In this document: positions 36,586 to 51,248 of the stretch, piece after piece
Layout: each line of letters begins with the position of its first letter
How positions within the stretch are numbered: position 1 is the first letter of the stretch
Assembly: GCA_038064495.1 (NCBI GenBank)
Contig: JBBTSZ010000004.1
Span: 5,363 to 69,362 of the forward strand
Origin: Patescibacteria group bacterium
GTDB lineage: Bacteria; Patescibacteriota; Minisyncoccia; Phycocordibacterales; Phycocordibacteraceae
DNA: 64,000 nucleotides
Reading direction: 5' to 3'
Made by a program: the position numbers and the translations under genes
Notes under the pieces: generated by a model
Databases searched by the model: none
Told to the model about the DNA's origin: nothing
The model's input: the letters and a program-made list of their open reading frames with translations, nothing else

Positions 36586-38487
36586 ATGAAGGAGAAAGGT
36601 CTCATTTTCGTCTACGAAACCGAACAGATACCGGCGGTCCTTGTGTATCTCGAGGAACATCCAGACTCCATGGTCATCAGCCTCACCCTTTGGGTTGAAC
36701 GGGAACTACGAGCAAACGGGGTGACGAGTCTCCCTCTTACTGACTTTGTATTGCCAACTGAAAATAATCACTCACTATTGGAACAGGCTGACACGCTCGC
36801 ACGAGAGTGGTACCAAACTCCTGAGATGAGTTTCTTCTCGTATGCCGGGATGCATCTCGGGGAAGTTCTAGAGCCGATGCTCTCTGAATATTTCCAAAGA
36901 ATTCTGTACTATCTTCGAGCAGTGCATGCTGTTCTTGCAGTACATGCCGACAGAACATTGCTCGTTACACCGCACTCTTGTAAGGAGGCGCGGTCCACAA
37001 GTGGTCCTCTCGCGCCGTTTGAAATACGTATTGTGGCAAATGTTATTTCTACTATCGGCAAGCAGCGAAGCCTCTCAGTTCAGCTACTTGGTAGGGAACC
37101 AGTAACTCCTACCGCACATATCTACCCTCGTTCACTACTTCGCTCGTATTCACTTGCCTGCATCAACGCATGCACCAAATTCCTAACTCCCCAAAAGCCT
37201 CTTAGGATATATGCAAGTGAATATTGGTGGCACGTCGCTCCCTTCATTCAGACTATGGATGATGCAGAAGTGGTATTTATGGAACGAAAAGAACTCCGGA
37301 ATATTCCATGGACTGAAATACGGAAACATCGTATCAGGTTTGCACACCCCGTTGATGCCACCTCACGGAAGATGAGACGAGACACACGCGAGATAGTGAA
37401 GCAGTTTACGCGTGAGTGGGAAGCAAAACGCGAGAGTGTACGCTCGATGGAGGGCTTCACCTACGAGGGAGACAACTGGTGGAGCTTAGTTGAAGCGGCA
37501 TATGAATATCTCGTCACCGTATATGCAGAACGTATTGTTACTGACCACAAAGCCTTTGAAGCATTATTTAAACGTGAGCATATCAATCGGGTACTGCTAC
37601 GCGCCAGTGTTGGGGGAACACAACACCATTTTTTTGTCGCTGCTCAGGTAGCACGCATGCTCCATATTCCCTCAATTGAGTTACAGCACGCAACTGAAGT
37701 CGTGGATGCACAATCGGTCCACTCTCGGCTTGCTGCGGATTATCTGGCTTCATATGGAGAAGCAACGAAAGAGAATCTAACTCGTAATCACGGGTATGAC
37801 CCAAACCGGATACGAGCGATAGGGTCACCTCGCTTTGATTCGTATACTCAACGTGATTCCTTTACTGAAGCTAAGAAAAGTGAATTTCTTACAACTCTTG
37901 GTTTGAATCCAGAAAAGCCAACACTCCTGTACGCCGTACCATCAGAAATTGTTGATTTGTATATTGCTAACTTTGATTCGTACCAAATCGCTCACTACTT
38001 TACAGAACTCAGGGCGGTGCAGGAACATATTCCGGAGTTGCAGATACTTGCGAAATTCAGAGGCGGCGCGCTGACTGAACGCTATCGGGATTTCCTTACT
38101 GAACTATTTCCTGATGGGGGAATAGTGCTTTCTGATTCACGAGACATCGTGTCGCTTATGCGGGCTTCAACACTTGTCCTCGCCGGTAACTCAACACTCT
38201 TTCTTGAGGCACTTCAGGCAGATTGCCCAACGCTGCTCTATCCGCTTCAGCCCCATGACGTTGTTACGAAGCAGACCTATCAGGCCGTACTTCCTGCACC
38301 AGATAACGCTGATACACTTAAAAACCTTGTCGAACGACTTGTCTTCAATCAGGCCGAACGGGAATTACTGCTTACAGCACAGCAGGCGTTCCTCCACACC
38401 AAGTATGCATTTGACGGCAAGGCGAGTGAGCGTATAGCTGCATTGCTTCGCGAACCACTCGTTAGCTATCCAAACGACATAGCGTAA
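36586..38487 (+). CDS. Hypothetical 633 aa protein; candidate Maf/DUF115-like or capsule-synthesis (KpsC/S-like) nonulosonate transferase
   Basis: No strong motif; size and position directly upstream of PseB-like gene; C-terminal half has GT-B-like alternating pattern. Assignment is inference only. Confidence 0.25.
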   Translation: MKEKGLIFVYETEQIPAVLVYLEEHPDSMVISLTLWVERELRANGVTSLPLTDFVLPTENNHSLLEQADTLAREWYQTPEMSFFSYAGMHLGEVLEPMLSEYFQRILYYLRAVHAVLAVHADRTLLVTPHSCKEARSTSGPLAPFEIRIVANVISTIGKQRSLSVQLLGREPVTPTAHIYPRSLLRSYSLACINACTKFLTPQKPLRIYASEYWWHVAPFIQTMDDAEVVFMERKELRNIPWTEIRKHRIRFAHPVDATSRKMRRDTREIVKQFTREWEAKRESVRSMEGFTYEGDNWWSLVEAAYEYLVTVYAERIVTDHKAFEALFKREHINRVLLRASVGGTQHHFFVAAQVARMLHIPSIELQHATEVVDAQSVHSRLAADYLASYGEATKENLTRNHGYDPNRIRAIGSPRFDSYTQRDSFTEAKKSEFLTTLGLNPEKPTLLYAVPSEIVDLYIANFDSYQIAHYFTELRAVQEHIPELQILAKFRGGALTERYRDFLTELFPDGGIVLSDSRDIVSLMRASTLVLAGNSTLFLEALQADCPTLLYPLQPHDVVTKQTYQAVLPAPDNADTLKNLVERLVFNQAERELLLTAQQAFLHTKYAFDGKASERIAALLREPLVSYPNDIA

Positions 38488-38518
38488 CTTTTTGCACACG
38501 AGCGCGGTATACACTACT

Positions 38519-39520
38519 ATGCAACCTATGATTACGGCTTTTCTCAAAGATAAGGTGGTTCTGGTGACCGGAGGTACCGGTACGTTCGGTAACGCCTTTG
38601 TGAAGAAGGTTCTTGCTGAGAACCAGATTAAGAAACTGATTATCTTTTCACGTGACGAATTGAAACAAAGTCAGATGCAGGCTTCTATAGAAGACCCGCA
38701 CAAAAAACTCCGGTTCTTCCTCGGAGATATCCGTGATTTGCCGCGCCTTAATCAAGCATTTCATGGAGTAGATTATGTTGTTCATGCCGCTGCCTTGAAA
38801 CGAGTTGATGCACTTGAATACAATCCGTCTGAAGCCATCAAAACAAATATCCTTGGAGGTCAGAATGTTATTGATGCAGCGCTCGCGAACAACGTGACTA
38901 AGTGCCTCCTTATTTCTACTGATAAAGCAGTTCAGCCGATTAACCTCTATGGTGCAACAAAACTTGCTGCCGAAAAACTCTTTGTTGCAGCGAACGCATA
39001 CCGGAGTCCTTCACAGAACACCGCATTCGGCGTTGTGCGGTATGGAAACGTCGTCGGTAGCCGTGGGAGTTTTATAGAAATGATTAAGACTCAGCGAGCG
39101 ACGGGTGTCATCACCCTTACCCACGAAAAGATGACGAGGTTCTGGATAACCATAGACAAGGTGATGGACGTGATTATTGAGAGTCTCGACCGGCTCCAAG
39201 GAGGAGAGACTTTTGTGCCGAAGATGGGGAATATGCCGGTCGTTGATGTGATTAAAATGCTTACTCCTGAATGTGAGATTAAGACAATTGGTATGCGCCC
39301 AGGTGAGAAACTCCACGAAGTGCTCGTTACCGAATATGAAGCACCGCGTACCAAAGATGGAGGAACAACCTTTATTGTGAAGCCCGAACAAGACTTCGTT
39401 GCCTCCTATTGCGGATGGCTCGACACACTTCCCGAAGCAGAAAAAGACTTTATTTTTGCAAGTGACAATCCTACATTCTTGCTCACGCAACCAGAAGCTG
39501 AAAAGATTCTCAAAATCTAA
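38519..39520 (+). CDS. pseB: UDP-N-acetylglucosamine 4,6-dehydratase (inverting), PseB/FlaA1 family
   Basis: VLVTGGTGTFG; IIFSRDELKQ; YGATKLAAEKLFVAAN; VVRYGNVVGSRGS; RFWIT; MRPGEKLHEV. All collinear with H. pylori FlaA1/PseB. Confidence 0.8.
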   Translation: MQPMITAFLKDKVVLVTGGTGTFGNAFVKKVLAENQIKKLIIFSRDELKQSQMQASIEDPHKKLRFFLGDIRDLPRLNQAFHGVDYVVHAAALKRVDALEYNPSEAIKTNILGGQNVIDAALANNVTKCLLISTDKAVQPINLYGATKLAAEKLFVAANAYRSPSQNTAFGVVRYGNVVGSRGSFIEMIKTQRATGVITLTHEKMTRFWITIDKVMDVIIESLDRLQGGETFVPKMGNMPVVDVIKMLTPECEIKTIGMRPGEKLHEVLVTEYEAPRTKDGGTTFIVKPEQDFVASYCGWLDTLPEAEKDFIFASDNPTFLLTQPEAEKILKI

Positions 39521-40224
39521 CTACCAGTATAGGTAATGTCTTCGTCATCAAGTCGTCGGTAGGGCTTTTCGTTTTGTATTTCCTCAAGGGCGTGCGCCAT
39601 CATTCCCGGCATGCGACCGAATGCGAAGAGCGGTTTGCCGAGATGTGGGTCAAGTCCGAGCTCAAGCATAAGTGCTGCTATGGCCCCATCAATATTGAGC
39701 GGGAGGTGCTTTCCGGTCGCGACCGCAAGTTCCTTTTCAATTAAACGTGCTTGTTCAACATGTACCCCTGCGATTCCGAGCTCTGTCGCAGCCTGAAGGA
39801 GTTGCTGCGCACGCGGGTCAGCATCCTTATAGACTTTGTGTCCGTAGCCCGGAAAGCGTGAACGCTCTGCAAGTACTTTCTCCACTGAGGTCTTCGCCTG
39901 AAAGTACTGTGCCGCCGCTTCAATAGCACCACCATGGTGGTCTCCTGTTGCGAGAATGCCTGCCGCAATGGCCACATGGAGCGGGTTACCCACTGAGGCC
40001 GATACGCGAGCACTAAATGCCGAAGGAGCCTGGACCCCATGCTCACTCATGGAAACGAGCATCATATCGAAGAGTTTTTGTTCGGTATCTGAAGGAAGTC
40101 TTCCAGAAAGAAGGAGGAAGGAAACCTCTGAAAAGGAATGGTCTCGGACCAGTTCTGAAAGGGAGATGCCCCGTACTACAAGTTGGCCCTCTTTTGTCGT
40201 GCTAATAGCGGTGTTCCATTTCAT
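39517..40224 (-). CDS. Citrate-synthase-family small protein (citryl-CoA lyase-like)
   Basis: TGDHHGGAIEA (citrate synthase GPLHGGANEA) and GYGHKVYKDADPRA (GFGHRVYKxxDPRA). Confidence 0.6.
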   Translation of the reverse strand: MKWNTAISTTKEGQLVVRGISLSELVRDHSFSEVSFLLLSGRLPSDTEQKLFDMMLVSMSEHGVQAPSAFSARVSASVGNPLHVAIAAGILATGDHHGGAIEAAAQYFQAKTSVEKVLAERSRFPGYGHKVYKDADPRAQQLLQAATELGIAGVHVEQARLIEKELAVATGKHLPLNIDGAIAALMLELGLDPHLGKPLFAFGRMPGMMAHALEEIQNEKPYRRLDDEDITYTGS

Positions 40225-40227
40225 ACG

Positions 40228-41124
40228 TTATGTAAGTATACGCTTAAGGGCAGGAGAGATTTCTTCAACCGTGGAAACGATGGTGACGCCAGCAGCAGTG
40301 AGTGCTTGCACTTTAGAGGCATAGCTTCCACGGCCTTTCGCTACGATGGTTCCCGCGTGACCAAGTACTGTGCCGTCAGTGAGTGTGTCTGCAAACTCTC
40401 CAGCGATGAGGGCAACAACAGGTTTGGAGAAAGAATTCTTTTTAATATAGTCAGCAGCTTGCTCCTCATAGGTACCGCCCACCTCTCCGAAGAGAACAAC
40501 GGCTGTCGTTTCAGCATCCTCAGCAAACAAGGTAAGGAGGTCAGTAAAATCGGAACCGATAAGAATGTCAGCACCAATACCTACAGCCGTTGACTGACCC
40601 AGTCCGGCGTTCGTCAGCGCGAGTGCAATCTCACTCGTCATTCCCCCTGATTTTGAAAGCACCCCAACAGAACCAGGTGAATAGACCTTCACCATCTCCC
40701 CAGAACCAATACTTCCAATCTTTGCTTTACCGGGAGAAATGATGCCAACCGACGAAGGGCCGACGACTCGTATGCCACACCTCCTCGCTTCAGCAAGCAT
40801 CCGGGCGGTGTCCTGTGTAGGAATATGTTCGGTCAGAATTACCACAAGCGGAATAGAGGCTCGTATAGATTCAAGTGCAGCGTCCATTGCAAATCGTGCT
40901 GGAACGACAACGAGGGACGTATTTATCTCGGGATGAGCAGTGAGTGCCTCAGCAACCGTGTTGTAGACCGGCACACCTTCCACCATCTCACCTCCTTTGC
41001 CGGGTGTGACGCCCGCAAGCACGGGTGTGCCGTATGCAAGAGACTCTCGACAGGTGCGTGCACCTTCATTCCCGGTGACGCCTTGTATCAAAAGTCGTGT
41101 CTCCTTGTCGATGAGGATGCTCAT
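40228..41124 (-). CDS. Succinyl-CoA synthetase alpha-like CoA-binding subunit (ATP-citrate lyase / citryl-CoA synthetase small subunit-like)
   Basis: LIQGVTGNEGARTCRESLAYGTPVLAGVTPGKGG; phosphohistidine loop LGHAGTIV. Confidence 0.7.
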   Translation of the reverse strand: MSILIDKETRLLIQGVTGNEGARTCRESLAYGTPVLAGVTPGKGGEMVEGVPVYNTVAEALTAHPEINTSLVVVPARFAMDAALESIRASIPLVVILTEHIPTQDTARMLAEARRCGIRVVGPSSVGIISPGKAKIGSIGSGEMVKVYSPGSVGVLSKSGGMTSEIALALTNAGLGQSTAVGIGADILIGSDFTDLLTLFAEDAETTAVVLFGEVGGTYEEQAADYIKKNSFSKPVVALIAGEFADTLTDGTVLGHAGTIVAKGRGSYASKVQALTAAGVTIVSTVEEISPALKRILT

Positions 41125-42179
41125 ACCGTTTTGTACGCAAGCGTCACCATAGTTGTTGCGGTGTCCTTCATGCTCGTCGTTGCGTCAAACAAATGAATAT
41201 CAAATCCTTCCTCTTGGGCAGCATCCTGGAGCATACGAAATGCTTCTTCACGCCGTGGGCCATCCCGGCGTATGACAATAGGGAAGGTTGGCTTCACTTC
41301 ACGCAATGCCTCAAGAAAGCCGGACATGGTTTCATAAATATCCGTAAAGTTCGCCGCGGCACCAACGACCCAGCACCCACGGAGTCCGGGATGCGATAGA
41401 ACTCGCAGGGTTAGTTCCTTAACGACCGACGCGGGAGGATTCCCCGAGTATTCCGTATAGTTTGCCGGTTTGCCTCCTGCACGAATGAGCGTGTCCATGT
41501 TTAAAAGGGAAGCGCCTCCACCAGACGCGAGAATGGCAATGTCCCCCGTGAGGGTCAGGATACGTTTCTCGCCGGGAGCAACTCTTTCGTCATCAGTTTG
41601 AATCTTAGCGTCGCCCGCAACGAGGCCACCGGCTGTTTCAAAAAGCGGATTGATTTCCGCCACAAGCGCGTATTCGTCAATAAACAATTTCCAGAGCTTC
41701 TGAATAACGTCTGAGAATTCTGAATGAACCTCTTTAGGAATATCAGCCGCGGTGTACGCCATGCTGAGGAGTTTGTCAGTAAGGCCTTCGAGAATGGAGA
41801 TGGGTGTGGTGTGTGCATCACTAATTCCCGTTCCTCCAGTTCGTGAGAGTGATAGAACTGGTGCTCGCGTATCTGTGTCGTACGAGAAACTCACATAATA
41901 TTCGTTCGTTGCCTGCACTCGTTCCTCTACAAGGATGTGTTCAACAGGCTCACCGGAAATCTCCTTCGAAAAGAGCGTCGCGAGCCCTTCCTCGGCCTCA
42001 GCCTGGTTTTCTGCAAAGATAATGCCCCCAGCCTTCATGCGGTCGCCAGAGCGCACCTGAGCCTTCAGTACGACCGGGAAGCTGGAAAGGGTGGTAGGAG
42101 CCTCAAGAAGGCTCCCCTCCGGTACTGGGATGCCATAGGAGGTGAAGAGTGCCTTTCCTTCAAATTCTCGGAGCCTCAT
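41121..42179 (-). CDS. Succinyl-CoA synthetase beta-like ATP-grasp subunit (ATP-citrate lyase / citryl-CoA synthetase large subunit-like)
   Basis: REFEGKALFTSYGIPVP, EINPL, ASGGGASLLNMDTLIRAGGKPANYTEYSG collinear with SucC; start chosen at MRLREFEG. Confidence 0.65.
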   Translation of the reverse strand: MRLREFEGKALFTSYGIPVPEGSLLEAPTTLSSFPVVLKAQVRSGDRMKAGGIIFAENQAEAEEGLATLFSKEISGEPVEHILVEERVQATNEYYVSFSYDTDTRAPVLSLSRTGGTGISDAHTTPISILEGLTDKLLSMAYTAADIPKEVHSEFSDVIQKLWKLFIDEYALVAEINPLFETAGGLVAGDAKIQTDDERVAPGEKRILTLTGDIAILASGGGASLLNMDTLIRAGGKPANYTEYSGNPPASVVKELTLRVLSHPGLRGCWVVGAAANFTDIYETMSGFLEALREVKPTFPIVIRRDGPRREEAFRMLQDAAQEEGFDIHLFDATTSMKDTATTMVTLAYKTV

Positions 42180-42259
42180 AGTTAGGAAAACTATACCCCA
42201 GGCTGATACGTTGCGACACAAAACTTTTACCGCTCCTCGTGGTTCTATATACTGTATAT

Positions 42260-42805
42260 ATGGAAGCAAAAGCCTTTCTTGAAGGAGATACACTCATACT
42301 CCGACCACTCGCTATCAGCGACTTGGAAGGGGCTTATATCTCGTGGCTGAATGACCCGGAGGTGAATGCTCATAACTCGCACCACGTGTTTCCGTATACA
42401 GAGGCTCAGGCACGAGCTTACGTGGAGCGGGTGAGTACTGACGAACACAATCTTGTGCTTGCAATCGTCGCAAAAGATTCAAAGACTCATATTGGGAATA
42501 TTTCTCTGCAACACATTGATTTCGTTTCGCACTCGGCCGAATATGCCATTCTCATAGGCGACCGCGCGTATTGGGGAAAGGGCGTGGCTGCTGAAGCATC
42601 AAGGCTTTTGCTGAAACACGGATTCACTGCACTCAATCTCCATCGTATTTATTGCGGGACTAGTTCTGAAAATATTGCCATGCAGAAACTCGCAGCAAAG
42701 CTCGGATTTGTTGAAGAGGGGAAACGCCGAGAAGCCCACTATAAGAATGGAGCCTATACTGACATCATTGAGTACGGTCTTCTCGCCTCAGAATTCTCTG
42801 CATGA
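42260..42805 (+). CDS. GNAT-family N-acetyltransferase (RimL-like; PseH candidate)
   Basis: GNAT core IGDRAYWGKGVAAEASRLLLKHGF; about 181 aa; alternative GTG start at 42239. Confidence 0.6.
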   Translation: MEAKAFLEGDTLILRPLAISDLEGAYISWLNDPEVNAHNSHHVFPYTEAQARAYVERVSTDEHNLVLAIVAKDSKTHIGNISLQHIDFVSHSAEYAILIGDRAYWGKGVAAEASRLLLKHGFTALNLHRIYCGTSSENIAMQKLAAKLGFVEEGKRREAHYKNGAYTDIIEYGLLASEFSA

Positions 42806-43992
42806 TTCCCGAAGACGCAACACCGCTTTTTCCGCACCTTATGTACTGCACTCGTTGTTGTATACCTGAGACTCAAGAAGGAATTGATTTTGACGAGCTT
42901 GGTATCTGTAAAGCATGTCGTTCTTCCGAACAGAAAATACACATCGATTGGGTGGCGCGTGGTAAACAGCTCGAAGAGATACTTGCCGATGCAAAAGCAA
43001 AAGCGGGAGATAACTATGACTGCATCATTCCAATAAGCGGTGGCAAGGACAGTACGTTTCAACTCCACGTACTCACGAAGGTGTATGGCATGAAGCCACT
43101 GGCCGTGACCTTCAGTCATAATTGGTGGAGTGAGAGTGGGTGGTACAACTTACAAAACGCGCTCGAAAAATTCAACGTTGACCACATCGCCTTCACACCG
43201 AACCGTGCCCTTATTAACCGGCTTACCAAACATTCTGTTGAAGGTATCGGAGACGTTAGTTGGCATGATCATGCTGGTGTAGGTTCGTTTCCGCTTCAGA
43301 TGGCTGTGAAATACAACATTCCGCTTTTGATATGGGGTGAATCAATAGCAGAGTCCTCGGGCCGTGCTTCATATGACGATCCGGTCCATAAGTTTGACCG
43401 TGATTATTTTCTTAAAGTATCGGCGAAACTTGCTCCGGACGAAATGGTAAATAAAGACGTTACTTCACGTGACCTGTATCCATTTGTAGTACCGTCTGTC
43501 GAAGAAGTAGAAAAAACTGGCGTTTGGGGTCTTCACTTGGGTGATTACTTATTTTGGGACGAAGAACGTCAGACGGAGTTTATTCGAGATACGTACGGTT
43601 GGCGCGAAACGGAAATGGAAAACGCCTATAAGCGGTACAAGAGCGTTGAGGACATCATGAGTGGTATGCATGACTTCACGTGTTATCTAAAGCGCGGGTA
43701 CGGACGTGCCACCTACCAGGCCTCCATCGACGTGCGCAACGGATTACTCACGCGCGAGGAAGGCTTTCAACTTATTCGGAAACACGACACGGAACGACCG
43801 GAGGCTCTCGACTACTATCTGAAAGTGTCAGGCTCTACTGAGGAAGAATTCTATGCCACGATGGAAAAGAAGCGTCACTCAAAGATGGTAGGAATCAATA
43901 TACCCGTGCACCCTAAAACACATAAAAGCGAAGAGCGCATACTGCCATTTCCGGAGCAATTGATTGAAAAGTTCGACACGAACCATGAATAA
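42802..43992 (+). CDS. N-acetyl sugar amidotransferase (PP-loop ATPase; WbuX/PseA family)
   Basis: N-terminal Cys-rich CTRCCIPETQ…CKACRS; PP-loop IIPISGGKDST. Confidence 0.7.
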   Translation: MIPEDATPLFPHLMYCTRCCIPETQEGIDFDELGICKACRSSEQKIHIDWVARGKQLEEILADAKAKAGDNYDCIIPISGGKDSTFQLHVLTKVYGMKPLAVTFSHNWWSESGWYNLQNALEKFNVDHIAFTPNRALINRLTKHSVEGIGDVSWHDHAGVGSFPLQMAVKYNIPLLIWGESIAESSGRASYDDPVHKFDRDYFLKVSAKLAPDEMVNKDVTSRDLYPFVVPSVEEVEKTGVWGLHLGDYLFWDEERQTEFIRDTYGWRETEMENAYKRYKSVEDIMSGMHDFTCYLKRGYGRATYQASIDVRNGLLTREEGFQLIRKHDTERPEALDYYLKVSGSTEEEFYATMEKKRHSKMVGINIPVHPKTHKSEERILPFPEQLIEKFDTNHE

Positions 43993-45322
43993 ACTTTTTA
44001 TCGAGAACTCCATCAATACACTTGTCGAAAAGCTTCACAGAGGAGCACTTCGACCCGAGGACCTATCGAATGCAACGCGTGAGAACATCTCTGAGCTCGA
44101 CTCGAAGTATCATGCGTTTGTCGTGTCGGCGGACAAGGGAGAGATGCTACGTATGCAACAGACCTCCGCCGGGAAAGGATTGTTCGCGCATGTTCCCGTT
44201 GGCGTAAAAGACATCTACAACACGGCCGATTTTCCAACACAGATGGGAAGTGCGTTATGGAAAAATTTCAAACCAGGCAACGATGCGCGCAGCCTCTTTA
44301 ATTTAAAGCGAGAAGGTGCGGTCGTGGCGGGGAAGACGGTCACGGCTGAGTTTGCCGTACATGCACTGAATGAAACCCTGAATCCCTACGACGTAACCCG
44401 TACGCCGGGCACATCTTCATCGGGTTCCGCTGTCGCGGTTGCGCTCGGCATGGTGCCGTTTGCTACTGGCACCCAGACGGCAGGGTCCATCATCCGTCCT
44501 GCGAGTTTTTGTGGTATCTACGGTATGAAGCCGTCCTTCGGATTTATTCCCCGCACGGGTGTACTGAAGACTACCGACAGTCTCGACACGCTCGGATTTT
44601 TCAGCGTGCATCTCGAGGATTTGAGGCGAGGCTTCGATGCCATGCGCGTTCATGGTCTTGACTACCCGATAAGCAACGTCGCCATAACGGACACGACGCG
44701 ACAGCAGAAGCGGGAAGGTCGCCCCTGGCGCGTCGGCTTCGTTCGCACTCATACCTGGGACGATGCTGAACCATACGCACAAGAGGCGTTCCTTGCGTTT
44801 GCGAAAAAACTTGGTGAGGAACGTGGTTTTGAAGTCGTTGACGCAACACTTCCGGAGCTGCTGCGGCAAGCGCACGAGACGCACGAGACCATATATGACA
44901 AAGCTCTCTCGTATTATTTCCAAAACGAGTACAAACATGCCGAGGACATTTCTCCCGTGATGCAGGAGATGATAGAGAAAGGGAAGGCGATTACGCCCGA
45001 GATGTACCAGGTGGCACTCGCTCGTCAGAGCGAGATGCTCTACGCGATGGACGAATATCTCAAAGAATTCGAGGTGCTTATCACACTTTCGACTGCGGGC
45101 GAAGCCCCGCTTCGTGAAGTGCGCGAGAAGCCAGACTCGTCTCTCATATGGACACTTACGCATCTTCCGGTGGTCGGCGTACCAGCATTTCGCTCACCGG
45201 ACAATCTCCCGTTCGGGTTTCAAGTGGTCGCACGCAAATACAACGACTACCTCCTACTCTCGTTCCTCGACACACTTCGTGAACGGAACCTTATTCCTGC
45301 GCGAGCCGGGTATTTCCTATGA
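43985..45322 (+). CDS. Amidase-signature family enzyme
   Basis: [45 protein letters not shown] amidase signature; 8-nt overlap with upstream gene. Confidence 0.7.
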   Translation: [445 protein letters not shown]

Positions 45323-46158
45323 AAGTTCTTGTACCAGGTTCGCGCGGTCTTTTAGGGACTACACTTACGGCAGTATTACAAAGTCAGCGACATGAAGTAA
45401 TTATCTTTGAAGGAGATATATCTGATGAGCAGAATGTAAAAGAGCAGGTACGTCACACATCGCCGGACGCCATTGTGAATGCATCTGCTATTGCGGATGT
45501 AAAAGTCTGTGAGGAGGAACCGGAGAAGGCAAGGGCAGTAAATGCGCTCGGCCAGAAATATCTCGTCGAAATGGCACAAGAGCTTTCGATTCCAATTATC
45601 TATATTTCCACGGTGTCAGTATTTAACGGAGAAGGAAATTACAAAGAGGATGATATCCCGAATCCACAGAATGTTTACAATAAAACCAAAAGAGAAGGCG
45701 AGCTACATACCCTTGCATACCAGAAGGGAATCGTGGCTCGTGTAAATATAATAGGTATTCATCGAAACGGTTCACGCGGGAAGGCGTTCCTTGAATGGAT
45801 GATTGATACGATAAAGGCTAATAAGGATCTGACTTTGTACACAGACTCGCGAATCAATCCATTATCAAATATCACCTTATCAGATCTCATACTCAAGCTA
45901 CTGGAAAGGCCTCCTGAGTATCAGATTATCCATCTAGGCTCTAAGGATGTGATATCGAAGGCAGATATCGGTGAGATGGTGTTGTCATATTTTCCTGAAT
46001 ACGCTGGTGAGGTGACGCGAACCCCTCAGTCAACCCAGTCAACGCAACCAAGGGAGATGTGGCTGAATGTGGAAAGAGCCGCAAAGCTGTTCGGCCCTCT
46101 TCCCTCTGTTTCAGAGGAGGTTCAGAAAATATTGCTTAATAAGAATGTTGCTTCCTAA
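45319..46158 (+). CDS. RmlD-like NAD(P)-dependent sugar 4-ketoreductase (dTDP-4-dehydrorhamnose reductase family)
   Basis: MKVLVPGSRGLLGTTL; YNKTKREGE (YxxxK). Confidence 0.6.
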   Translation: MKVLVPGSRGLLGTTLTAVLQSQRHEVIIFEGDISDEQNVKEQVRHTSPDAIVNASAIADVKVCEEEPEKARAVNALGQKYLVEMAQELSIPIIYISTVSVFNGEGNYKEDDIPNPQNVYNKTKREGELHTLAYQKGIVARVNIIGIHRNGSRGKAFLEWMIDTIKANKDLTLYTDSRINPLSNITLSDLILKLLERPPEYQIIHLGSKDVISKADIGEMVLSYFPEYAGEVTRTPQSTQSTQPREMWLNVERAAKLFGPLPSVSEEVQKILLNKNVAS

Positions 46159-46186
46159 GCTCTTGGCGCGAGGTTATACTCGGTAC

Positions 46187-47278
46187 ATGAACAGGCAACC
46201 GATCAAAATAGGAAACCGTTTAGTGGGTCCGGGGTATCCGGCCTACATCATTGCCGAGATAGGCTCCAATTTTGACGGCGATCTTGAGAGGGCAAAAATG
46301 CTCGCTAAGATGTCCAAAGACGCGGGAGCAGACGCGTATAAGATTCAAAACTTTCTTGCTCCAAAGATTGTCTCCGCAGAAGGATTTAAAGACCTCCAAG
46401 TAGCCTTCCAGGCAAAATGGGACAAACCGGTAGTGGAAGTATATAAAAACGCGGAGTTTCCTCGTGAATGGGTAAAAGAAGTTGCAGACTACTGCAAAGA
46501 AATCGACATCGAATTCTTCTCTAGTCCGTATGACGAAGACGCAGTGGACCTCCTCGAAGAGCTTGGTGTGGCCGCTTACAAGGTAGGTTCAGGGGAAATA
46601 GATAATCTCGAGTTCATTACGCGTATTGCAAAGACCGGAAAGCCAGTCATTATTGGCGCAGGAGCCGCAACGATAGAAGAAGTTGAAGATGCGATACGTA
46701 CCGTACGCCAGGCGGGGAATGAACAAATTGTTCTTCTCCAGTGTGTTACGAATTATCCTTCACCTATGAAAGACGCAAACTTGCGTGCCATGGTCGCGAT
46801 GGGCGAACAGTTCAACGTACTCTACGGATACTCTGACCACACTATAGGTACCGCAGGCGGAGGAGATGACCCGCTAAACGGCATCACCGTTCCTTTGGCG
46901 TCGGTTGCACTTGGCGGTTGCCTCATAGAAAAACACGTTACGGATGACACTACTCGAAAGGGTCCAGACCATCCCTTCGCTATGGTCATCAACGGAAACT
47001 TCAAAGATATGATTGCTGGCGTACACGCCCTTGAATCCGCCCTTGGTGACGGACATAAGGGGCTCACGTCATCCGAAACGGAGACGTCCGTTATTCAGCG
47101 CCGTGGTGCGTACGCACTGCGGGACATTACGTCGGGAGAGACTATCACCCGAGCTGATTTCGAGTACCTGCGACCGGCAGTAGGCATTCGTCCTCGCGAA
47201 GCAGGAACACTAATTGGTGGAATTGCCAGCCGCGATATTACGAAAGGGAAGCCCATAAAGAATGATGACCTCGCCTAA
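46187..47278 (+). CDS. pseI: Nonulosonic acid synthase (NeuB/PseI/LegI family) with C-terminal SAF domain
   Basis: YIIAEIGSNFDGDLERAKML (canonical NeuB IIAEIGxNHNG); about 364 aa from ATG 46187; ORF-track 5' extension rejected. Confidence 0.75.
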   Translation: MNRQPIKIGNRLVGPGYPAYIIAEIGSNFDGDLERAKMLAKMSKDAGADAYKIQNFLAPKIVSAEGFKDLQVAFQAKWDKPVVEVYKNAEFPREWVKEVADYCKEIDIEFFSSPYDEDAVDLLEELGVAAYKVGSGEIDNLEFITRIAKTGKPVIIGAGAATIEEVEDAIRTVRQAGNEQIVLLQCVTNYPSPMKDANLRAMVAMGEQFNVLYGYSDHTIGTAGGGDDPLNGITVPLASVALGGCLIEKHVTDDTTRKGPDHPFAMVINGNFKDMIAGVHALESALGDGHKGLTSSETETSVIQRRGAYALRDITSGETITRADFEYLRPAVGIRPREAGTLIGGIASRDITKGKPIKNDDLA

Positions 47279-47927
47279 CGAAAAAGTTATTGCCGTCATA
47301 CCGGCCTATAACGAGGCAAAAACAATCAGGAGGGTCATAGAAGGACTACGTCCTTACGTTTCCTCCGTTGTTGTCGTGAACGACGCTTCAAAAGACGAAA
47401 CGGAGAATGAGGCGCACGCTGCGGGCGCCACGGTAGTGTCGCACAAAGTTAACCAAGGATACGACACCACTATTAATGATGGATTCAAGAAAGCTGCGGA
47501 AGAAGGTGCAACCATTATTCTTACGTTCGATGCCGACGGCGAACACGAGCCAACTGACGTGCCGCGCATTCTTGCACCTATTCGTGAAGGAAAAGCAGAC
47601 TTGGTACTCGGCCAAAGGCCAGAGAGTCGCCACTTCGGTGAGCGAGTACTCGCCAGCTATACAAAGGCGAGGTATGGAATTCCTGACCCACTCTGCGGAC
47701 TGAAAGCATATAAGCGAGAAATCTATAACCGTGTGGGTTTTTTTGATTCGGTCTCGTCCATTGGTTCAGAACTTTCGCTTCGCGCGATACGTCTCGGGTA
47801 TAATCCTGCTCTCGTCCCGATAACACTTCACGCGCGGGAGGTAGGAGATACGTCTCGGTTCTACGAATTTAATCTACGGGGTAACATGCGAATACTTATG
47901 GCATTGTGGCGCATACTATGGATATGA
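47262..47927 (+). CDS. Small glycosyltransferase family 2 protein
   Basis: VIAVIPAYNEAKTI…VVVVNDASKDET. Confidence 0.55.
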   Translation: MMTSPNEKVIAVIPAYNEAKTIRRVIEGLRPYVSSVVVVNDASKDETENEAHAAGATVVSHKVNQGYDTTINDGFKKAAEEGATIILTFDADGEHEPTDVPRILAPIREGKADLVLGQRPESRHFGERVLASYTKARYGIPDPLCGLKAYKREIYNRVGFFDSVSSIGSELSLRAIRLGYNPALVPITLHAREVGDTSRFYEFNLRGNMRILMALWRILWI

Positions 47928-48925
47928 AAACCTATCGAGGCGTCGTTATAGGGTGCGGAAAGGTGGGCGCCACCTTCGAAATGGATACCGGTCTTGTGAG
48001 GCCTGCCTCACACGCAGCCGCGCTTGTGGCGCACCCGCAAACAGAACTCGTCGCGCTTGTAGACCCCATGCCTGAGGCACTCGAACGCGCTGGAGGATAC
48101 TACAAGGTGCCTACCTATACTGATGCCGAGACATGCTTCACAGCAATGAAGCCGGATATTGTCATCATCGCGACTCCACCACCTACGCATGAAGCAATGC
48201 TTGCTCTCGCATTTGCGCATAACATTCCTGCTGTAATTTGTGAGAAGCCCGTGGCAGATACTCGTGTAGAAGCAGAACGTATGATTGATGCGACCGCGAA
48301 GGCTTCCACGCTCGTTATTGTTAATCATCAGCGCAGATTCTTTCCTCTGTTTATTGACGCTAAGGAGCGTATTGCAAAAGGAGAGCTAGGACGGGTGCAA
48401 CAAATAACGGCATACTACACTAATGGTCTTACCAATAACGGTACACACACACTTGATGCGATTGCATATCTCATCGCTGACCATGCTACGTGGGTAGTGG
48501 GGGTACGTAACGAAAAGAACACTACAGCGCCATTCAGCACGAACATCGATGGACTTGTCGGGTATGCGGGTGGAGCTGTCGCAGCAATACAGAGTCTTGA
48601 TAACGACTCATACGGGGTTCACGATTTCCGTATATACGGAACGGAGGGGGTCCTCACTATCGGGCAGTACGGCTATGCCTTTTCTCGAACACCTGTCGCA
48701 GAAGGCATAACGTTTGCCGGCGTCAAAGAGCCAGACTGGGAACACTCGGTGAACGAGCTTGATAAACGGAGCATGCTCCTCGGGACCCTTGCCCATACAG
48801 TGGAATGCTTGGAGCGAGGCACCCCGCCACGTAGCACCCTTTCCGATGGTTATCAGACTATGCAGGTACTCGAGGCGCTTACCGAGAGCGCAGACAATGG
48901 AGGCCAGCGCATTACCATTTCATAG
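47918..48925 (+). CDS. Gfo/Idh/MocA-family oxidoreductase
   Basis: YRGVVIGCGKVGATF; ICEKPVADT. Confidence 0.65.
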   Translation: MDMKTYRGVVIGCGKVGATFEMDTGLVRPASHAAALVAHPQTELVALVDPMPEALERAGGYYKVPTYTDAETCFTAMKPDIVIIATPPPTHEAMLALAFAHNIPAVICEKPVADTRVEAERMIDATAKASTLVIVNHQRRFFPLFIDAKERIAKGELGRVQQITAYYTNGLTNNGTHTLDAIAYLIADHATWVVGVRNEKNTTAPFSTNIDGLVGYAGGAVAAIQSLDNDSYGVHDFRIYGTEGVLTIGQYGYAFSRTPVAEGITFAGVKEPDWEHSVNELDKRSMLLGTLAHTVECLERGTPPRSTLSDGYQTMQVLEALTESADNGGQRITIS

Positions 48926-48931
48926 TTTTCC

Positions 48932-50221
48932 ATGGATATCGAAGCTCCAGCCATTCTTGGCGGCACACCCGTTCTTACGACTCCTCTACCACCTACGCAC
49001 AATGTGGGTGAGGAAGAGGTGCGTGCTACTACGCGCGTTCTCATGGGCGGCCCACTTTCCGGTTTCATCGGTACCGTTGGCGCGAGGTTTCTTGGGGGGG
49101 CGGAAGTCCAGCGTTTCGAAGAGGCATTTCGCGAATATTTTGGGGTGAAGCACGCGGTTGCATTTAACTCAGGCACTACCGCGCTTCATGCGGCGATTGC
49201 CGCACTCGGTATTGGGCCGGGTGATGAGGTCATTGTCCCACCGTACTCTATGGCCGCGTCTGCAGTATGTGTCGTGAACAATGGTGCCATACCCGTGTTT
49301 GCAGACATCGACCCAAAGACGTTCACTCTCGACCCAGAATCAGTGAAATCAAAAATCACGAAGTACACCAAAGGCATTGTGGTCGTGAACTTGTTTGGTC
49401 AGGCTGCAGACCTCGATGCCATCATGACCATCGCAAAAGACCACAACCTCAAGGTGCTTGAGGATAATGCGCAGTCACCGCGCGCCATGTACAAGGGAAA
49501 ATATGCAGGCACCATTGGAGACGTGGGCATGTTCAGTTTCAATGTGAACAAAGTTGCGCAGTGTGGAGAGGGTGGGGTGGTGGTTACGAACGATGACACC
49601 TACGCACTTCGTGCGCAGCTTATGCGCAATCACGGCGAGTCAGTGGTGGACGATTTACCTGACTACGATGCTGGACCTATATTCGGCAGTAACTACCGCA
49701 TGACGGAACTCGAGGCTGCCATCGCGTACGAGCAGCTGCAAAAGCTCGAACATTTCAATGCGCGCAAAGTTGAGCTTGCTGAATACCTCACGAGTCAGTT
49801 GAAGGATATTCCTGGGATAACGACTCCGTTTATTCCAGAAGGGAACACCCATGTGTATTTCCAGTACGCACTCAAAGTCGATGTAGAGAAAACAGGCATC
49901 TCGCGCGACAAGCTCGTTGAAGCAATGGCTGCCGAGGGATTCCCCATGGCACGCGGCTACGTGAAGCCCATTTATCTTCTGCGTATGTTCCAGGAGCGCA
50001 AGGCGTTTAACGATACTCATTTCCCCTTTGAGTACGATGGATATCAGGGCAACCCCGACTACTCGAAGGGGTCGTGTCCAGTTGTGGAGCGCATGTACGA
50101 AACGGAGCTTACCTCTAGCATGCTCTGTCAGTTCCCACGCACAAACGAACACATCGACTTGTTCGTGTTCGCATTGAAACGAGTGTTAGCAAACGCAGAG
50201 GCAGTAATGAAAGGAGCATGA
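48932..50221 (+). CDS. pseC: DegT/DnrJ/EryC1/StrS-family PLP aminotransferase (PseC-like)
   Basis: Family-typical length (429 aa) and pattern VIVPPYSMAASA…FSFNVNKVAQCGEGG. Confidence 0.65.
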   Translation: MDIEAPAILGGTPVLTTPLPPTHNVGEEEVRATTRVLMGGPLSGFIGTVGARFLGGAEVQRFEEAFREYFGVKHAVAFNSGTTALHAAIAALGIGPGDEVIVPPYSMAASAVCVVNNGAIPVFADIDPKTFTLDPESVKSKITKYTKGIVVVNLFGQAADLDAIMTIAKDHNLKVLEDNAQSPRAMYKGKYAGTIGDVGMFSFNVNKVAQCGEGGVVVTNDDTYALRAQLMRNHGESVVDDLPDYDAGPIFGSNYRMTELEAAIAYEQLQKLEHFNARKVELAEYLTSQLKDIPGITTPFIPEGNTHVYFQYALKVDVEKTGISRDKLVEAMAAEGFPMARGYVKPIYLLRMFQERKAFNDTHFPFEYDGYQGNPDYSKGSCPVVERMYETELTSSMLCQFPRTNEHIDLFVFALKRVLANAEAVMKGA

Positions 50222-51006
50222 TAGACGGTAAGAAGATCGTTGCGATTATCGAAGCACGCATGACCTCGTCACGCTTGCCGGGGAAGGTGCTCATGCCACT
50301 AGCAGGGGAGTCCGTACTGGCACGCCAGATAGAACGATTGCGCCACAGTACGCACATTGACGACGTCGTGGTCGCAACGACCACGAATGCTCCAGACGAT
50401 GCTATCGTTGCGGAGTGCGAGCGTCTCAACGCGCGCTATTGGCGCGGAAGTGAGGACGATGTGCTTCTGCGCGTACTTGAGGCAGCGCAATCGGTACAAG
50501 CGGATATCATTGTCGAAATCTGTGGAGATTGCCCCTTTATTGACTGGCGTCATGCGGATGCCCTCCTTGAAATGATGGGTAAGGACGGGTATGACTATGT
50601 CGCAAACTCGCTGGAAGAGACGTTCCCCATCGGATTTGATATTCGCATTTTCCCGACGACCATTCTTGATGAGGTAAACCGCATCAGCAAAGACGCATAT
50701 GATCACGAGCACGTCTCTTTGTATATCTACAATCACCCTGAGAAATATAAGCTCGGGAATATCGCTGCGGAAGGAAAGATGCGTCGCAGGGACCTCCGAC
50801 TCGTTATCGATAACAAAGAGGACTATCAACTCGCTTCAACCATCTACGAGAAGCTCTATCCAGGAAATCCCAACTTTAGTGCCGAGGACGTGATTACATT
50901 GTTTGAGCAGGAGCCAGAGCTCGCACTCATAAACCGCGACATTAAACAGAAAGACCCCTACGGTACGTTTATGGAACGGCACATGCGTGAGGACACTATC
51001 GAATAA
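50218..51006 (+). CDS. pseF: CMP-nonulosonate synthetase (acylneuraminate cytidylyltransferase family, PseF-like)
   Basis: KIVAIIEARMTSSRLPGKVLMPLAG matches CMP-NeuAc synthetase N-terminal signature. Confidence 0.7.
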   Translation: MIDGKKIVAIIEARMTSSRLPGKVLMPLAGESVLARQIERLRHSTHIDDVVVATTTNAPDDAIVAECERLNARYWRGSEDDVLLRVLEAAQSVQADIIVEICGDCPFIDWRHADALLEMMGKDGYDYVANSLEETFPIGFDIRIFPTTILDEVNRISKDAYDHEHVSLYIYNHPEKYKLGNIAAEGKMRRRDLRLVIDNKEDYQLASTIYEKLYPGNPNFSAEDVITLFEQEPELALINRDIKQKDPYGTFMERHMREDTIE

Positions 51007-51074
51007 CAGAACGGGTTACGGGTACCGCTCTTACCTCAGTTTCTCTGATTGTTTTACAACCAGCGTTTCTCGTG

Positions 51075-51203
51075 ATGGATATCGTTATACCAATTACGAT
51101 GGGCATCATGATTTTCAAGGAGCGCCGTCAATTCGGACCATGGGACATTGTGTTCTATGTTCTCGGAATTATCGGTTTCCTGCTGGTGCTCTTCGGCTCA
51201 TAA
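51075..51203 (+). CDS. Unannotated 42 aa hydrophobic peptide (small membrane protein)
   Basis: MDIVIPITMGIMIFKERRQFGPWDIVFYVLGIIGFLLVLFGS; below ORF-track length cutoff; followed by intrinsic terminator. Confidence 0.3.
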   Translation: MDIVIPITMGIMIFKERRQFGPWDIVFYVLGIIGFLLVLFGS

Positions 51204-51207
51204 ACTC

Positions 51208-51248
51208 GCGCCCCCACAACGCAAATTGTGGGGGCGCTTTCTGTGGTA
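51208..51248 (+). terminator. Rho-independent terminator
   Basis: GCGCCCCCACAA-cgcaa-TTGTGGGGGCGC then TTTCTGTGGTATCTTT. Confidence 0.65.

Follow-up and report, generated by a model that had tools for sequence, protein, structure and literature searches.

A WbuX-type sugar amidotransferase paired with an amidase-signature protein in a nonulosonic acid operon of an uncultured Patescibacteria bacterium

Background

The closest described counterparts of the locus considered here are the canonical sugar amidotransferases WbuX, WbpG, and AglY, exemplified by E. coli O145 WbuXYZ, P. aeruginosa O5 WbpG, and M. maripaludis AglXYZ, which occur in surface-glycan clusters and presumably convert an N-acetyl into an acetamidino group at the expense of ATP, releasing AMP and PPi. 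Their partner is a class-I glutaminase together with a HisF-like barrel. To our knowledge, Campylobacter PseA and PtmG work without a dedicated partner gene alongside, and a partner is therefore not obligatory for the family. Related chemistry is provided by GatCAB, where a Ser-cisSer-Lys amidase-signature enzyme serves an ATP-dependent amidation partner, while malonamidase E2 (MAE2) of Bradyrhizobium japonicum (1OCK/1OBI) is a stand-alone catabolic enzyme of the amidase-signature type. The surrounding biosynthetic genes recall the PseBCHGIF pathway, LegBCHGIF with PtmF/PtmG, and SpsM/C/D/G/E/F of B. subtilis. In Leg clusters, PtmF oxidoreductases adjoin LegF (PMC4481668).

The 64-kb window, that is, the whole stretch of Patescibacteria (CPR) DNA that was analysed, carries at 36.6-51 kb a tightly packed nonulosonic acid (NulO) operon. 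Its amidotransferase belongs to the same synthetase family as the canonical enzymes and shares their presumed chemistry and surface-glycan setting, but it represents a distinct subfamily with a private C-terminal tail, is accompanied by an amidase-signature protein instead of the glutaminase and barrel, and in relatives is often fused with that protein into one chain. The proposed generation of ammonia by a Ser-cisSer-Lys enzyme resembles GatCAB; unlike in GatCAB, neither GatB nor GatC is involved, and a PP-loop adenylating enzyme takes the place of the kinase-type domain of GatB as the acceptor. Residues K62, S131, S155, and R158 of MAE2 correspond to K75, S144, S168, and R171 here, although the present amidase family lies in glycan loci and is obligately tied to WbuX, by linkage or by fusion. 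As in the Pse, Leg, and Sps pathways, the operon encodes a dehydratase, a synthase, a CMP-transferase, a GNAT, and a DegT protein, as well as an amidotransferase of the PtmG/PseA family and, adjoining the cytidylyltransferase, a PtmF-like oxidoreductase. In contrast to those pathways, it lacks a PseG, LegG, or NeuC hydrolase and contains an additional RmlD-like SDR and a short GT2 protein.

Results

Table 1. Genes of the nonulosonic acid operon and its flanks, with the matches on which each assignment rests.
Feature	Position	Strand	Evidence
Putative glycosyltransferase, 633 aa	36586..38487	+	Candidate nonulosonate transferase
UDP-GlcNAc 4,6-dehydratase, PseB (inverting) type	38492..39520	+	TIGR03589 398 bits, cutoff 407.75
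Citryl-CoA lyase-like protein (shortened citrate-synthase fold)	39517..40224	-	NF004869 244.5 bits, cutoff 212
SucD/CcsB-like CoA-ligase alpha subunit	40228..41124	-	CoA_binding and Ligase_CoA domains
CcsA/AclB-like subunit	41121..42179	-	ATP-grasp_2 106 bits, Citrate_bind 82 bits (Pfam)
GNAT (Acetyltransf_3) N-acetyltransferase	42260..42805	+	PF13302 107 bits; 4-nt overlap with WbuX
N-acetyl sugar amidotransferase (WbuX/NASAT; PP-loop ATP pyrophosphatase)	42802..43992	+	TIGR03573 340.8 bits, cutoff 203.2
Amidase-signature enzyme, proposed ammonia-generating WbuX partner	43985..45322	+	PF01425 229 bits
RmlD-like SDR reductase/epimerase	45319..46158	+	RmlD_sub_bind 156 bits
NeuB-family nonulosonate synthase	46187..47278	+	NeuB 252 bits and SAF domain; contains IIAEIGSNFDGD
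Short GT2-fold protein, 221 aa	47262..47927	+	Glycos_transf_2 82 bits; overlaps end of NeuB-family gene
Gfo/Idh/MocA oxidoreductase (PtmF-like position)	47906..48925	+	Pfam
DegT-family sugar aminotransferase	48932..50221	+	DegT 330 bits
CMP-sugar (ulosonate) cytidylyltransferase	50218..51006	+	CTP_transf_3 104 bits
ABC exporter/flippase (MsbA/PglK/HepA-like)	51295..53058	+	Profile matches
Wzy_C (O-antigen ligase/O-oligosaccharyltransferase family) membrane protein	53093..55240	+	Wzy_C 65.8 bits, TPR repeats

The amidotransferase, originally predicted as a PP-loop enzyme of the WbuX/PseA family, has all the sequence hallmarks of the NASAT family, including the PP-loop S79-GGKDS-84, the zinc tetracysteine motif CxxC...GxCxxC (C16, C19, C36, and C39), and a 157-bit match to 8WEX, the structure of LpNASAT, in accordance with the published description of the family (PMC10607449). 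It ends in a subfamily-specific tail, ERILPFPEQLIEK, whose motif ERILP[FY]PxQLIEK is limited to amidase-type WbuX proteins and occurs in 0 of 88 canonical representatives. Identity is 57-82% inside this subfamily and about 35% to HisH/HisF-linked paralogues of the same loci.

The ATG of the amidase gene precedes the stop of WbuX by 8 nt, confirming the overlap noted earlier, and the sequence shows the GNAT, WbuX, and amidase genes to be translationally coupled. The catalytic triad K75/cis-S144/S168, together with R171, is invariant among 30 orthologues and 60 fusions. Over its full length, the closest solved relative is malonamidase E2 (211 bits, TM 0.88-0.89, 31-32% identity), whereas GatA aligns with the N-terminal half only (136 bits), so that its C-terminal residues that bind glutamine have no aligned counterpart; AtzE also belongs to the nearest relatives, all of which hydrolyse small amides, and the wider structural neighbours include FAAH, aryl acylamidase, and ClbL. 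Assignment as GatA was rejected, since the protein scores 178 bits with the GatA model, whose cutoff is 481. Since the protein is nearer to malonamidase E2 than to GatA, its glutaminase activity is putative. Relatives are named "GatA subunit family amidase" by automatic annotation.

Genes for the amidase occur in at least 554 species genomes. Adjacency was counted in the 80 best loci and two more. Contig ends cut 2 loci of this combined set, and in all 80 evaluable related loci the amidase adjoins or is fused to a WbuX ortholog: WbuX lies directly upstream on the same strand in 73, the two are fused in 6, and WbuX lies downstream in 1. The co-occurrence that had been suggested as a check thus extends far beyond chance, and it spans CPR, Ignavibacteria, Burkholderiales, Desulfobacterota, Chloroflexota, Cyanobacteria, and the methanogenic archaeon Methanoregula. 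The median distance from WbuX stop to amidase start is 9 nt (maximum 62 nt), with overlap in 23 of the 73 loci. The fusions were confirmed as single, unbroken chains of about 870 aa and form about 65 protein clusters, including one from cultured Solidesulfovibrio alcoholivorans; in an AF2 model of one fusion the domains are confident (pLDDT 89), but pTM is only 0.64. Within the block, conservation is highest for WbuX and the amidase (mean pairwise distance 0.32 and 0.44, compared with 0.50 for DegT and 0.59 for NeuB), and their distance matrices correlate at r=0.77, hardly above the WbuX-DegT value of r=0.72. We found no description of the pairing in the searchable literature.

No HisH- or HisF-like gene is present within the window. 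Elsewhere, other WbuX subfamilies are fused to a HisF-like His_biosynth domain (P0149) or a class-I GATase (P0161). Three related loci (L015, L025, and L163) possess both arrangements, a second, divergent WbuX adjoining HisH and HisF and an amidase-type WbuX adjoining or fused to the amidase.

Among the sugar-pathway genes, the family assignments of the original prediction held for the PseB/FlaA1-type dehydratase, the RmlD-like reductase, the NeuB-family synthase with its canonical motif, the DegT aminotransferase, and the CMP-sugar synthetase (Table 1). The dehydratase, whose best PDB match is H. pylori PseB/FlaA1 (2gn4, 312 bits; CapE 210, PglF 144) and whose LegB score in profile searches is just 57 bits, is the sole pathway component approaching its equivalog threshold. 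The synthase scores 298.7 bits with the NeuB model and 295.3 bits with the PseI model, each below its own cutoff, with PseI (8h2c, 181 bits) ahead of SpsE (172) and NeuB (153) in the PDB. The reductase reaches 144 bits with the rmlD model (cutoff 224), and the order PseB-RmlD-NeuB recurs in relatives. DegT was rejected as a PseC or LegC equivalog (232 and 213 bits, both far below the cutoffs); its PDB matches are perosamine synthetase (223 bits), KdnA (180), WbpE (172), and PseC (116). The cytidylyltransferase was likewise rejected as PseF (26 bits, below cutoff), and KdsB-like models reach 70 bits, also below cutoff. The acetyltransferase proposed as a PseH candidate is a GNAT but not PseH (37.8 bits, cutoff 93); its gene lies directly 5' of WbuX in most related loci, and GNAT-WbuX fusion proteins occur. 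The operon contains one Gfo/Idh/MocA gene rather than the two claimed, in a CMP-transferase-Gfo-DegT run kept in relatives; another is found elsewhere in the window, on the minus strand (21409-22503). Profile searches detected no PseG-like gene in the locus, in agreement with the first reading. The pseudaminic-like label consequently fits the dehydratase and, slightly, the synthase, but not DegT, the GNAT, the cytidylyltransferase, or the absence of PseG. Because the window lacks both PseG/NeuC and a GT-B-like "X" gene found in relatives, the encoded pathway looks incomplete.

The 633-aa protein, earlier considered a Maf-like transferase, has no Maf/DUF115 match, and its profile matches are all weak and of glycosyltransferase type (Glyphos_transf 22 bits, BFO_1060 GT 40 bits, TIGR04396); homologues with 27-48% identity head the same cluster in several loci (L001, L002/L012, L014, and L015). 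The short GT2 gene, absent from the first reading, is kept directly 3' of the NeuB-family gene in six (L001, L002, L008, L010, L033, and L068), and the ABC exporter is kept downstream of the cluster in the first four of these. Three minus-strand genes at 39517-42179, also missing from the first reading, resemble citryl-CoA synthetase/lyase and form an operon kept in about 40 metagenome loci. The lyase-like protein has a Citrate_synt C-terminal domain with motifs GDHHGG, GYGHKVY, and NID; the SucD/CcsB-like protein contains the phospho-histidine motif GHAG and scores 301 bits with sucCoAalpha (cutoff 353); and the CcsA/AclB-like subunit likely starts at M39 of its ORF. Wzy_C homologues adjoin this triad or NulO genes in four loci (L087, L095, L102, and L103).

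Discussion

We consider it probable (about 0.7) that the locus is a surface-glycan operon making a CMP-activated, diamino-type nonulosonic acid with a charged acetamidino (acetimidoyl) group, the amidase serving WbuX. Supply of ammonia to an acetamidino-forming WbuX is the most likely role of the amidase, and the predicted replacement of HisH/HisF is well backed by comparative genomics, namely the adjacency in every evaluable locus, the close or overlapping gene spacing, the fusions, and the partners of WbuX paralogues.

An unrelated amidase with a housekeeping role, for instance a paralogue of GatA, standing beside WbuX by chance would agree with the automatic annotation of relatives; the low GatA score, the fusions, and the 80/80 adjacency across bacteria and archaea refute this reading, which we regard as extremely improbable, and the possibility raised earlier that the gene is unlinked in relatives fell with it. 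A tailoring hydrolase acting on the sugar itself, either freeing an amine by loss of its N-acyl group or trimming or reversing the amidine, is unlikely. The structural neighbours include enzymes that hydrolyse secondary amides (FAAH, aryl acylamidase, and ClbL), free-amine NulOs and deacetylase-containing clusters exist (SugarBase preprint), and some relatives have formyltransferase genes and Formyl_trans_N-WbuX fusions. However, the nearest relatives act on small amides, the arginine equivalent to the carboxylate-binding R158 of MAE2 is invariant, the amidase occupies the same fusion and adjacency slot as HisH/HisF of other WbuX paralogues, and a deacylase would not require such strict linkage.

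Somewhat more plausible, yet still doubtful, is that Gfo, DegT, GNAT, WbuX, and the amidase constitute an oxidise-transaminate-acetylate-amidinate line acting at another position or on a later intermediate than in canonical Pse/Leg synthesis, analogous to WbpB/WbpE/WbpD/WbpG or KdnB/KdnA and possibly using a CMP-nonulosonate or UDP-hexosamine. The structural matches of DegT, the retention of the block CMP-transferase-Gfo-DegT-X-GNAT-WbuX-amidase in most loci, the separate PseB-RmlD-NeuB sub-block, and an extra pair of PseB and PseC-like DegT in five loci (L015, L044, L047, L017, and L095) all point this way. Against it, the window and L002 have a single DegT, which the classical 5,7-diamino sugar route also requires, and PtmF-type Gfo/Idh/MocA proteins are ordinary LegF companions in Leg clusters (PMC4481668).

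Under the favoured reading, in which the amidase supplies WbuX, the GNAT would N-acetylate a sugar amino group, whose acetamido oxygen WbuX would adenylate with ATP, releasing AMP and PPi, before the adenylate is replaced by ammonia and the amidine is formed. This ammonia would be produced on site by the amidase, whose triad would hydrolyse a small carboxylate-bearing primary amide, most plausibly glutamine or asparagine, in a pocket resembling that of malonamidase E2. The two proteins would act as a complex, as a single chain in some lineages, with the amidase filling the slot of the HisH glutaminase and the HisF-like tunnel protein in a manner that would parallel GatA feeding GatB. The dehydratase, RmlD-like SDR, Gfo/Idh/MocA protein, DegT, NeuB-family synthase, and cytidylyltransferase would build and activate the nine-carbon sugar, and the 633-aa glycosyltransferase, ABC flippase, and Wzy_C protein may install and export the glycan, whose target would be other than flagellin because the CPR host is non-flagellated.

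Organization of the glycan island and the nonulosonic acid operon

The nonulosonic acid (NulO) operon belongs to a single large surface-glycan island, which occupies ~10-56 kb of the window and also encodes five GT4 glycosyltransferases, GT9, methyltransferases, a UDP-glucose dehydrogenase, and SDRs. Its genes are closely packed, with 4-22 nt overlaps or gaps of at most 28 nt, and the 8-nt overlap reported earlier between WbuX, a PP-loop N-acetyl sugar amidotransferase (NASAT), and the adjoining amidase-signature gene is real. The amidase shares 100% identity with a protein in GenBank from the MAG of a "Patescibacteria group bacterium," which assigns the window to the CPR. Three minus-strand genes between pseB and the GNAT gene had been overlooked in the first reading, and of the two Gfo/Idh/MocA oxidoreductases originally placed in the interval, one lies there and the second is located outside, at 21409-22503. 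The 633-aa ORF, formerly considered a Maf-like transferase, carries neither MAF_flag10 nor DUF115 and yields weak matches to Glyphos_transf, BFO_1060, and TIGR04396 in Pfam and NCBIfam; given the absence of a Maf domain from these matches, this identity was rejected.

Main features of the NulO operon and its immediate surroundings
Feature	Position	Strand	Remark
Putative glycosyltransferase, 633 aa		plus	operon gene within 36586-51006
PseB-type dehydratase		plus	operon gene within 36586-51006
Citryl-CoA lyase-like, SucD/CcsB-like, and ATP-grasp+Citrate_bind (CcsA/AclB-like) genes	39517-42179	minus	divergent from GNAT gene
GNAT	42260-42805	plus
WbuX	42802-43992	plus
Amidase-signature protein	43985-45322	plus
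RmlD-like SDR		plus	operon gene within 36586-51006
NeuB-family synthase	46187-47278	plus
Short GT2-fold protein, 221 aa	47262-47927	plus	overlaps 3' end of NeuB-family gene
Gfo/Idh/MocA		plus	single copy within 36586-51006
DegT		plus	operon gene within 36586-51006
CTP_transf_3 cytidylyltransferase		plus	operon gene within 36586-51006
ABC exporter, MsbA/PglK-like	51295-53058		downstream of NulO operon
Wzy_C (O-antigen ligase/PglL-type) protein, C-terminal TPR repeats	53093-55240		downstream of NulO operon

The combination of a Wzy_C/TPR protein and an ABC exporter suggests lipid-linked assembly and en-bloc transfer of the glycan, possibly as protein O-glycosylation in a CPR bacterium. The 221-aa GT2-fold protein holds its position after NeuB across several phyla, one possibility being a polyprenyl-phosphate sugar synthase-like or hydrolytic role. 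A 103-aa ORF (50987-51298) spans the junction between the cytidylyltransferase and ABC exporter genes and overlaps both. Upstream of the cluster, the segment 29921-36073 encodes an FAD oxidoreductase, a Zn-ADH, PDH-E1 alpha and beta subunits without E2/E3, a PfkB-kinase fragment, a cytidylyltransferase-like protein (split HldE-like), and a NUDIX hydrolase, a set resembling another, atypical cassette for making activated-sugar or acyl units. On the minus strand at 21409-24173, outside the interval, the second Gfo/Idh/MocA gene is accompanied by a sugar C-methyltransferase (Methyltransf_13/14), and this pair indicates more unusual sugars from the same island. Two large CARDB-domain proteins (607 and 796 aa), ORFs lacking a Pfam match, and a TrwB/TraG/HerA-like ATPase are encoded at 2891-10125, upstream of the glycan island.

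Assignment of the sugar pathway

The operon was initially read as a pseudaminic-type pathway, and the dehydratase is the enzyme that comes closest to this assignment. This protein narrowly misses the PseB cutoff (398 vs. 407.75 bits), scores 57 bits against a LegB cutoff of 475, and has H. pylori PseB as its best PDB match; on these comparisons it is PseB-like. The other enzymes do not follow: DegT reaches 231.7 bits on PseC (cutoff 423.5), 116 bits with H. pylori PseC (2fn6), and 213 bits on LegC (cutoff 420), scores so far below the cutoffs that both identities were ruled out, while GNAT scores 37.8 bits on PseH (cutoff 93.1) and the cytidylyltransferase 26 bits on PseF (cutoff 206). The synthase falls under the cutoff on both the PseI model (295.3 bits; cutoff 340.25) and the NeuB model (298.7 bits); its best PDB match is, marginally, PseI (8h2c), followed by SpsE of B. 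subtilis, which makes legionaminic acid (PMC7439481). HMM scores therefore do not discriminate among the Pse, Leg, and Neu pathways, all being under cutoff with PseB a near-miss. Searches of the 64-kb window returned no match to PseG, as the original prediction had anticipated, nor to NeuC, and no Epimerase_2-family gene that could represent a LegG/NeuC hydrolysing 2-epimerase is present in the cluster.

Gene order in related loci provides further information on the route. DegT is always accompanied by the Gfo oxidoreductase and the cytidylyltransferase, and most relatives share a conserved block consisting of cytidylyltransferase, Gfo, DegT, a GT-B-like gene (X), GNAT, WbuX, and amidase. X encodes ~330-370 aa, lies between DegT and GNAT in ~50/82 related loci (for example, at 18388-19380 in L001 and 14760-15689 in L002), and shows weak Epimerase_2/polysialyltransferase similarity; it is probably an NDP-sugar hydrolase. 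X was not found in the window, where the cytidylyltransferase directly follows DegT. In Leg clusters, the CMP-synthetase typically has a Gfo-type "PtmF" beside it (PMC4481668). On the evidence from the dehydratase, synthase, DegT, X, and PtmF, the product is best labelled as a putative Pse/Leg-class diamino-nonulosonate of either stereochemistry, with a late-stage oxidation/transamination route kept as an alternative.

Pairing of WbuX with the amidase across genomes

Scanning 185,579 species genomes with a pattern derived from an amidase-family alignment showed that at least 554 species-level genomes, bacterial and archaeal, encode a relative of the amidase. The best 80 loci and two others were compared by matching all ORFs to the window proteins. 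The best 80 derive from CPR bacteria, Ignavibacteria, Bacteroidota, Burkholderiales, Desulfobacterota, Chloroflexota, Cyanobacteria, Planctomycetota, Verrucomicrobiota, Babeliales, a Methylosinus plasmid, Magnetospirillum, and the archaea Methanoregula and Methanomicrobiales. Two loci could not be evaluated, with a contig end within 160 nt; in all 80 evaluable loci the amidase adjoins or is fused to a WbuX orthologue. A WbuX orthologue (57-82% identity) lies directly 5' of the amidase on the same strand in 73 loci, the two are fused in frame in six, and WbuX is located just downstream in one. Among the 73, the WbuX stop and the amidase start are a median of 9 nt apart (maximum 62 nt), with overlap in 23. 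The six fused ORFs (869-1002 aa) are stop-free and consist of WbuX (residues 1 to ~395), a 25-30-aa linker, and the amidase. A search of 5.8 billion proteins with one fusion recovered ~65 fusion clusters of 850-925 aa, one of them from the cultured Solidesulfovibrio alcoholivorans, where the protein is annotated solely as "N-acetyl sugar amidotransferase." Searching a plasmid collection with the amidase gave zero matches.

Mirror-tree correlation of distance matrices (r = 0.77 for WbuX-amidase; 0.72 vs. DegT and 0.73-0.76 vs. NeuB) does not discriminate the pair, since the whole block is co-inherited. In an AF2 model of a natural fusion, the domains are confident (mean pLDDT 89.1), linker residues 388-396 are floppy, and pTM is 0.64; the best 50 Foldseek matches of this model are to the amidase domain alone.

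Properties of the two partner proteins

The window WbuX exceeds the cutoff of TIGR03573 (340.8 vs. 203.2 bits) and aligns to the LpNASAT structure 8WEX with 157 bits. It contains both the PP-loop (SGGxDS; S79-G-G-K-D-S84) and the tetracysteine Zn motif (CxxCxn[GN]xCxxC; C16-T-R-C19 ... G34-I-C36-K-A-C39) that define the NASAT family (PMC10607449, the sole structural paper), and the cysteines show complete or almost complete conservation across 60 fusion proteins. It is presumed to convert a sugar N-acetyl group to an acetamidino group using ATP and ammonia. A C-terminal tail, ERILP[FY]PxQLIEK, is common to the amidase-type WbuX proteins; it extends past the end of the TIGR03573 model, is kept in both split and fused forms, and was found in none of the 88 full-length canonical WbuX representatives examined. 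This tail is a candidate docking element.

Several other WbuX architectures were observed (listed proteins P0121, P0122, P0126, P0128, P0141, P0348, and P0353), including tandem WbuX-WbuX-amidase proteins of ~1150 aa, ~600-aa proteins whose N-terminal WbuX half is degenerate and has no PP-loop, methyltransferase-WbuX fusions (PtmH-like; possibly N-methyl-acetimidoyl), Formyl_trans_N-WbuX fusions (possibly formimidoyl), and a fusion of a kinase-like domain to WbuX. The ~600-aa proteins were also considered as an unknown N-terminus joined to WbuX that might be a third ammonia module, a candidate that was rejected when they proved to be degenerate-WbuX/WbuX tandems or methyltransferase fusions.

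The amidase matches PF01425 with 229 bits, and across its full length it is closest, among solved structures, to malonamidase E2 (MAE2; 211 bits). The MAE2 residues K62, cis-S131, S155, and R158, the same residues targeted in deposited MAE2 mutants, align to K75, S144, S168, and R171, all of which are invariant in 30 orthologues, as are the equivalent positions in 60 fusion proteins. This conservation of aligned catalytic residues predicts activity on a small amide. In MAE2, R158 is the ligand of the malonamate carboxylate, and by analogy the amide used by the window protein, which has R171 at this position, may bear a carboxylate. When a fused homologue was modelled with AF2, the model superimposed better on MAE2 (TM 0.88-0.89) than on GatA (0.77-0.81). 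The possibility raised at the outset that the gene is a misplaced GatA paralogue is consistent with database labels, which name these amidases "GatA family amidase" (and the fusions just "N-acetyl sugar amidotransferase"). Neither Pfam nor NCBIfam has a model specific to the subfamily. The GatA paralogue was rejected on the GatA model score (TIGR00132; 178.5 vs. 481.1 bits), an alignment to GatA structures limited to residues 8-294 in the N-terminal half, and the adjacency to WbuX in 80/80 loci.

Proposed source of ammonia for WbuX

HisH/HisF-like proteins are the accepted ammonia suppliers of WbuX, WbpG, and AglY in E. coli O145, P. aeruginosa O5, and M. maripaludis (AglXYZ), respectively, a starting point shared by the original prediction. 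An HMMER search with the window WbuX followed by Pfam analysis revealed three kinds of fusion partner: an amidase (P0121, P0122, P0124, and P0183), a HisF-like His_biosynth domain (P0149), and a class-I glutaminase (GATase) domain (P0161). Two WbuX paralogues coexist in L015 (Adlerbacteria), L025 (Methanoregula), and L163 (S. alcoholivorans), where HisH/HisF-like genes flank the divergent copy (35-36% identity in L015 and L025) and the amidase flanks, or is fused to, the amidase-type copy. HisH/HisF-like genes were not detected in the 64-kb window by tblastn with the GATase and HisF domains of the WbuX fusions, and in related loci they occur only beside the second WbuX of these three. These parallel fusions, paralogue-specific partners, and absences suggest that the amidase takes the place, in function, of the glutaminase/tunnel pair, as the original prediction of an ammonia-donating amidase implied. 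Mechanistically, the nearest precedent is the supply of GatB by GatA. GNAT-WbuX fusions and the kept order GNAT-WbuX-amidase are arguments for N-acetylation being followed directly by amidination. In the three loci with both paralogues, two full amidination modules, WbuX2+HisH+HisF(+GNAT) and GNAT+WbuX+amidase, are located side by side (L015 13024-15600, L025 112-2800, and L163 2175-5462), which points to sugars amidinated twice or to two distinct acetamidino sugars.

Taken at this level, WbuX-amidase would be a widespread amidotransferase with a swapped ammonia module. A much broader proposal is that it constitutes an unrecognised class of channelled amidotransferase with an MAE2-like ammonia module and a non-glutamine donor, acting as the last step of a self-contained seven-gene line (cytidylyltransferase, Gfo, DegT, X, GNAT, WbuX, and amidase) that adds the acetamidino group late to an assembled or activated nonulosonate by a route distinct from Pse/Leg, with the minus-strand triad of CPR genomes perhaps feeding acetyl-CoA (plus oxaloacetate/PEP). 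As a whole, we regard the broader proposal as unlikely and favor the swapped-module reading.

A citryl-CoA synthetase/lyase-like triad within NulO clusters

The divergent minus-strand genes (ccsA/ccsB/ccl) encode an ATP-grasp+Citrate_bind protein, a CoA-ligase alpha protein with the catalytic His, and a truncated citrate-synthase lyase, the domain composition of citryl-CoA synthetase/lyase (CCS/CCL; split ATP-citrate lyase) enzymes, with the full set of catalytic motifs; the lyase exceeds the cutoff of the citryl-CoA-lyase subfamily model NF004869 (244.5 vs. 212 bits). The triad forms a fixed three-gene operon in ~40 metagenomic loci (44-60% identity) and resides inside NulO clusters of three more CPR genomes (L002 (= L012), L004, and L016). 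PseB, NeuB, GNAT, or Wzy_C genes adjoin it in the metagenomic loci L087, L095, L099, L102, L103, L106, L116, and L118; in other places it is accompanied by an HMGL-like aldolase together with a TPP enzyme, SDRs, and a NUDIX protein, by CofD, or by GlmS. CPR organisms are generally considered to lack a TCA cycle. A local supply of acetyl-CoA for N-acetyltransferases is a plausible putative role.

Implications

Acidic nonulosonic acids become net-neutral or zwitterionic when they carry acetamidino groups. Phage binding, serotype, and immune recognition are properties that these groups help to determine. To our knowledge, the ammonia supply of NASAT enzymes has been addressed by genetic inference only, and only for the HisH/HisF-linked type, and we know of no source for Campylobacter PseA/PtmG; a full-text literature search found no paper tying an amidase to WbuX, PseA, PtmG, PP-loop enzymes, or acetamidino formation. 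The present locus points to an amidase-signature partner, sometimes fused, as a second and widespread ammonia solution for these enzymes, and the system is directly testable because natural single-chain versions exist in a cultured Solidesulfovibrio species. It also offers a better annotation rule for "GatA family amidase" and "N-acetyl sugar amidotransferase" entries, a new example of the modular swapping of ammonia-generating domains among amidotransferases, and evidence of investment by CPR bacteria in elaborate surface glycans that carry charge.
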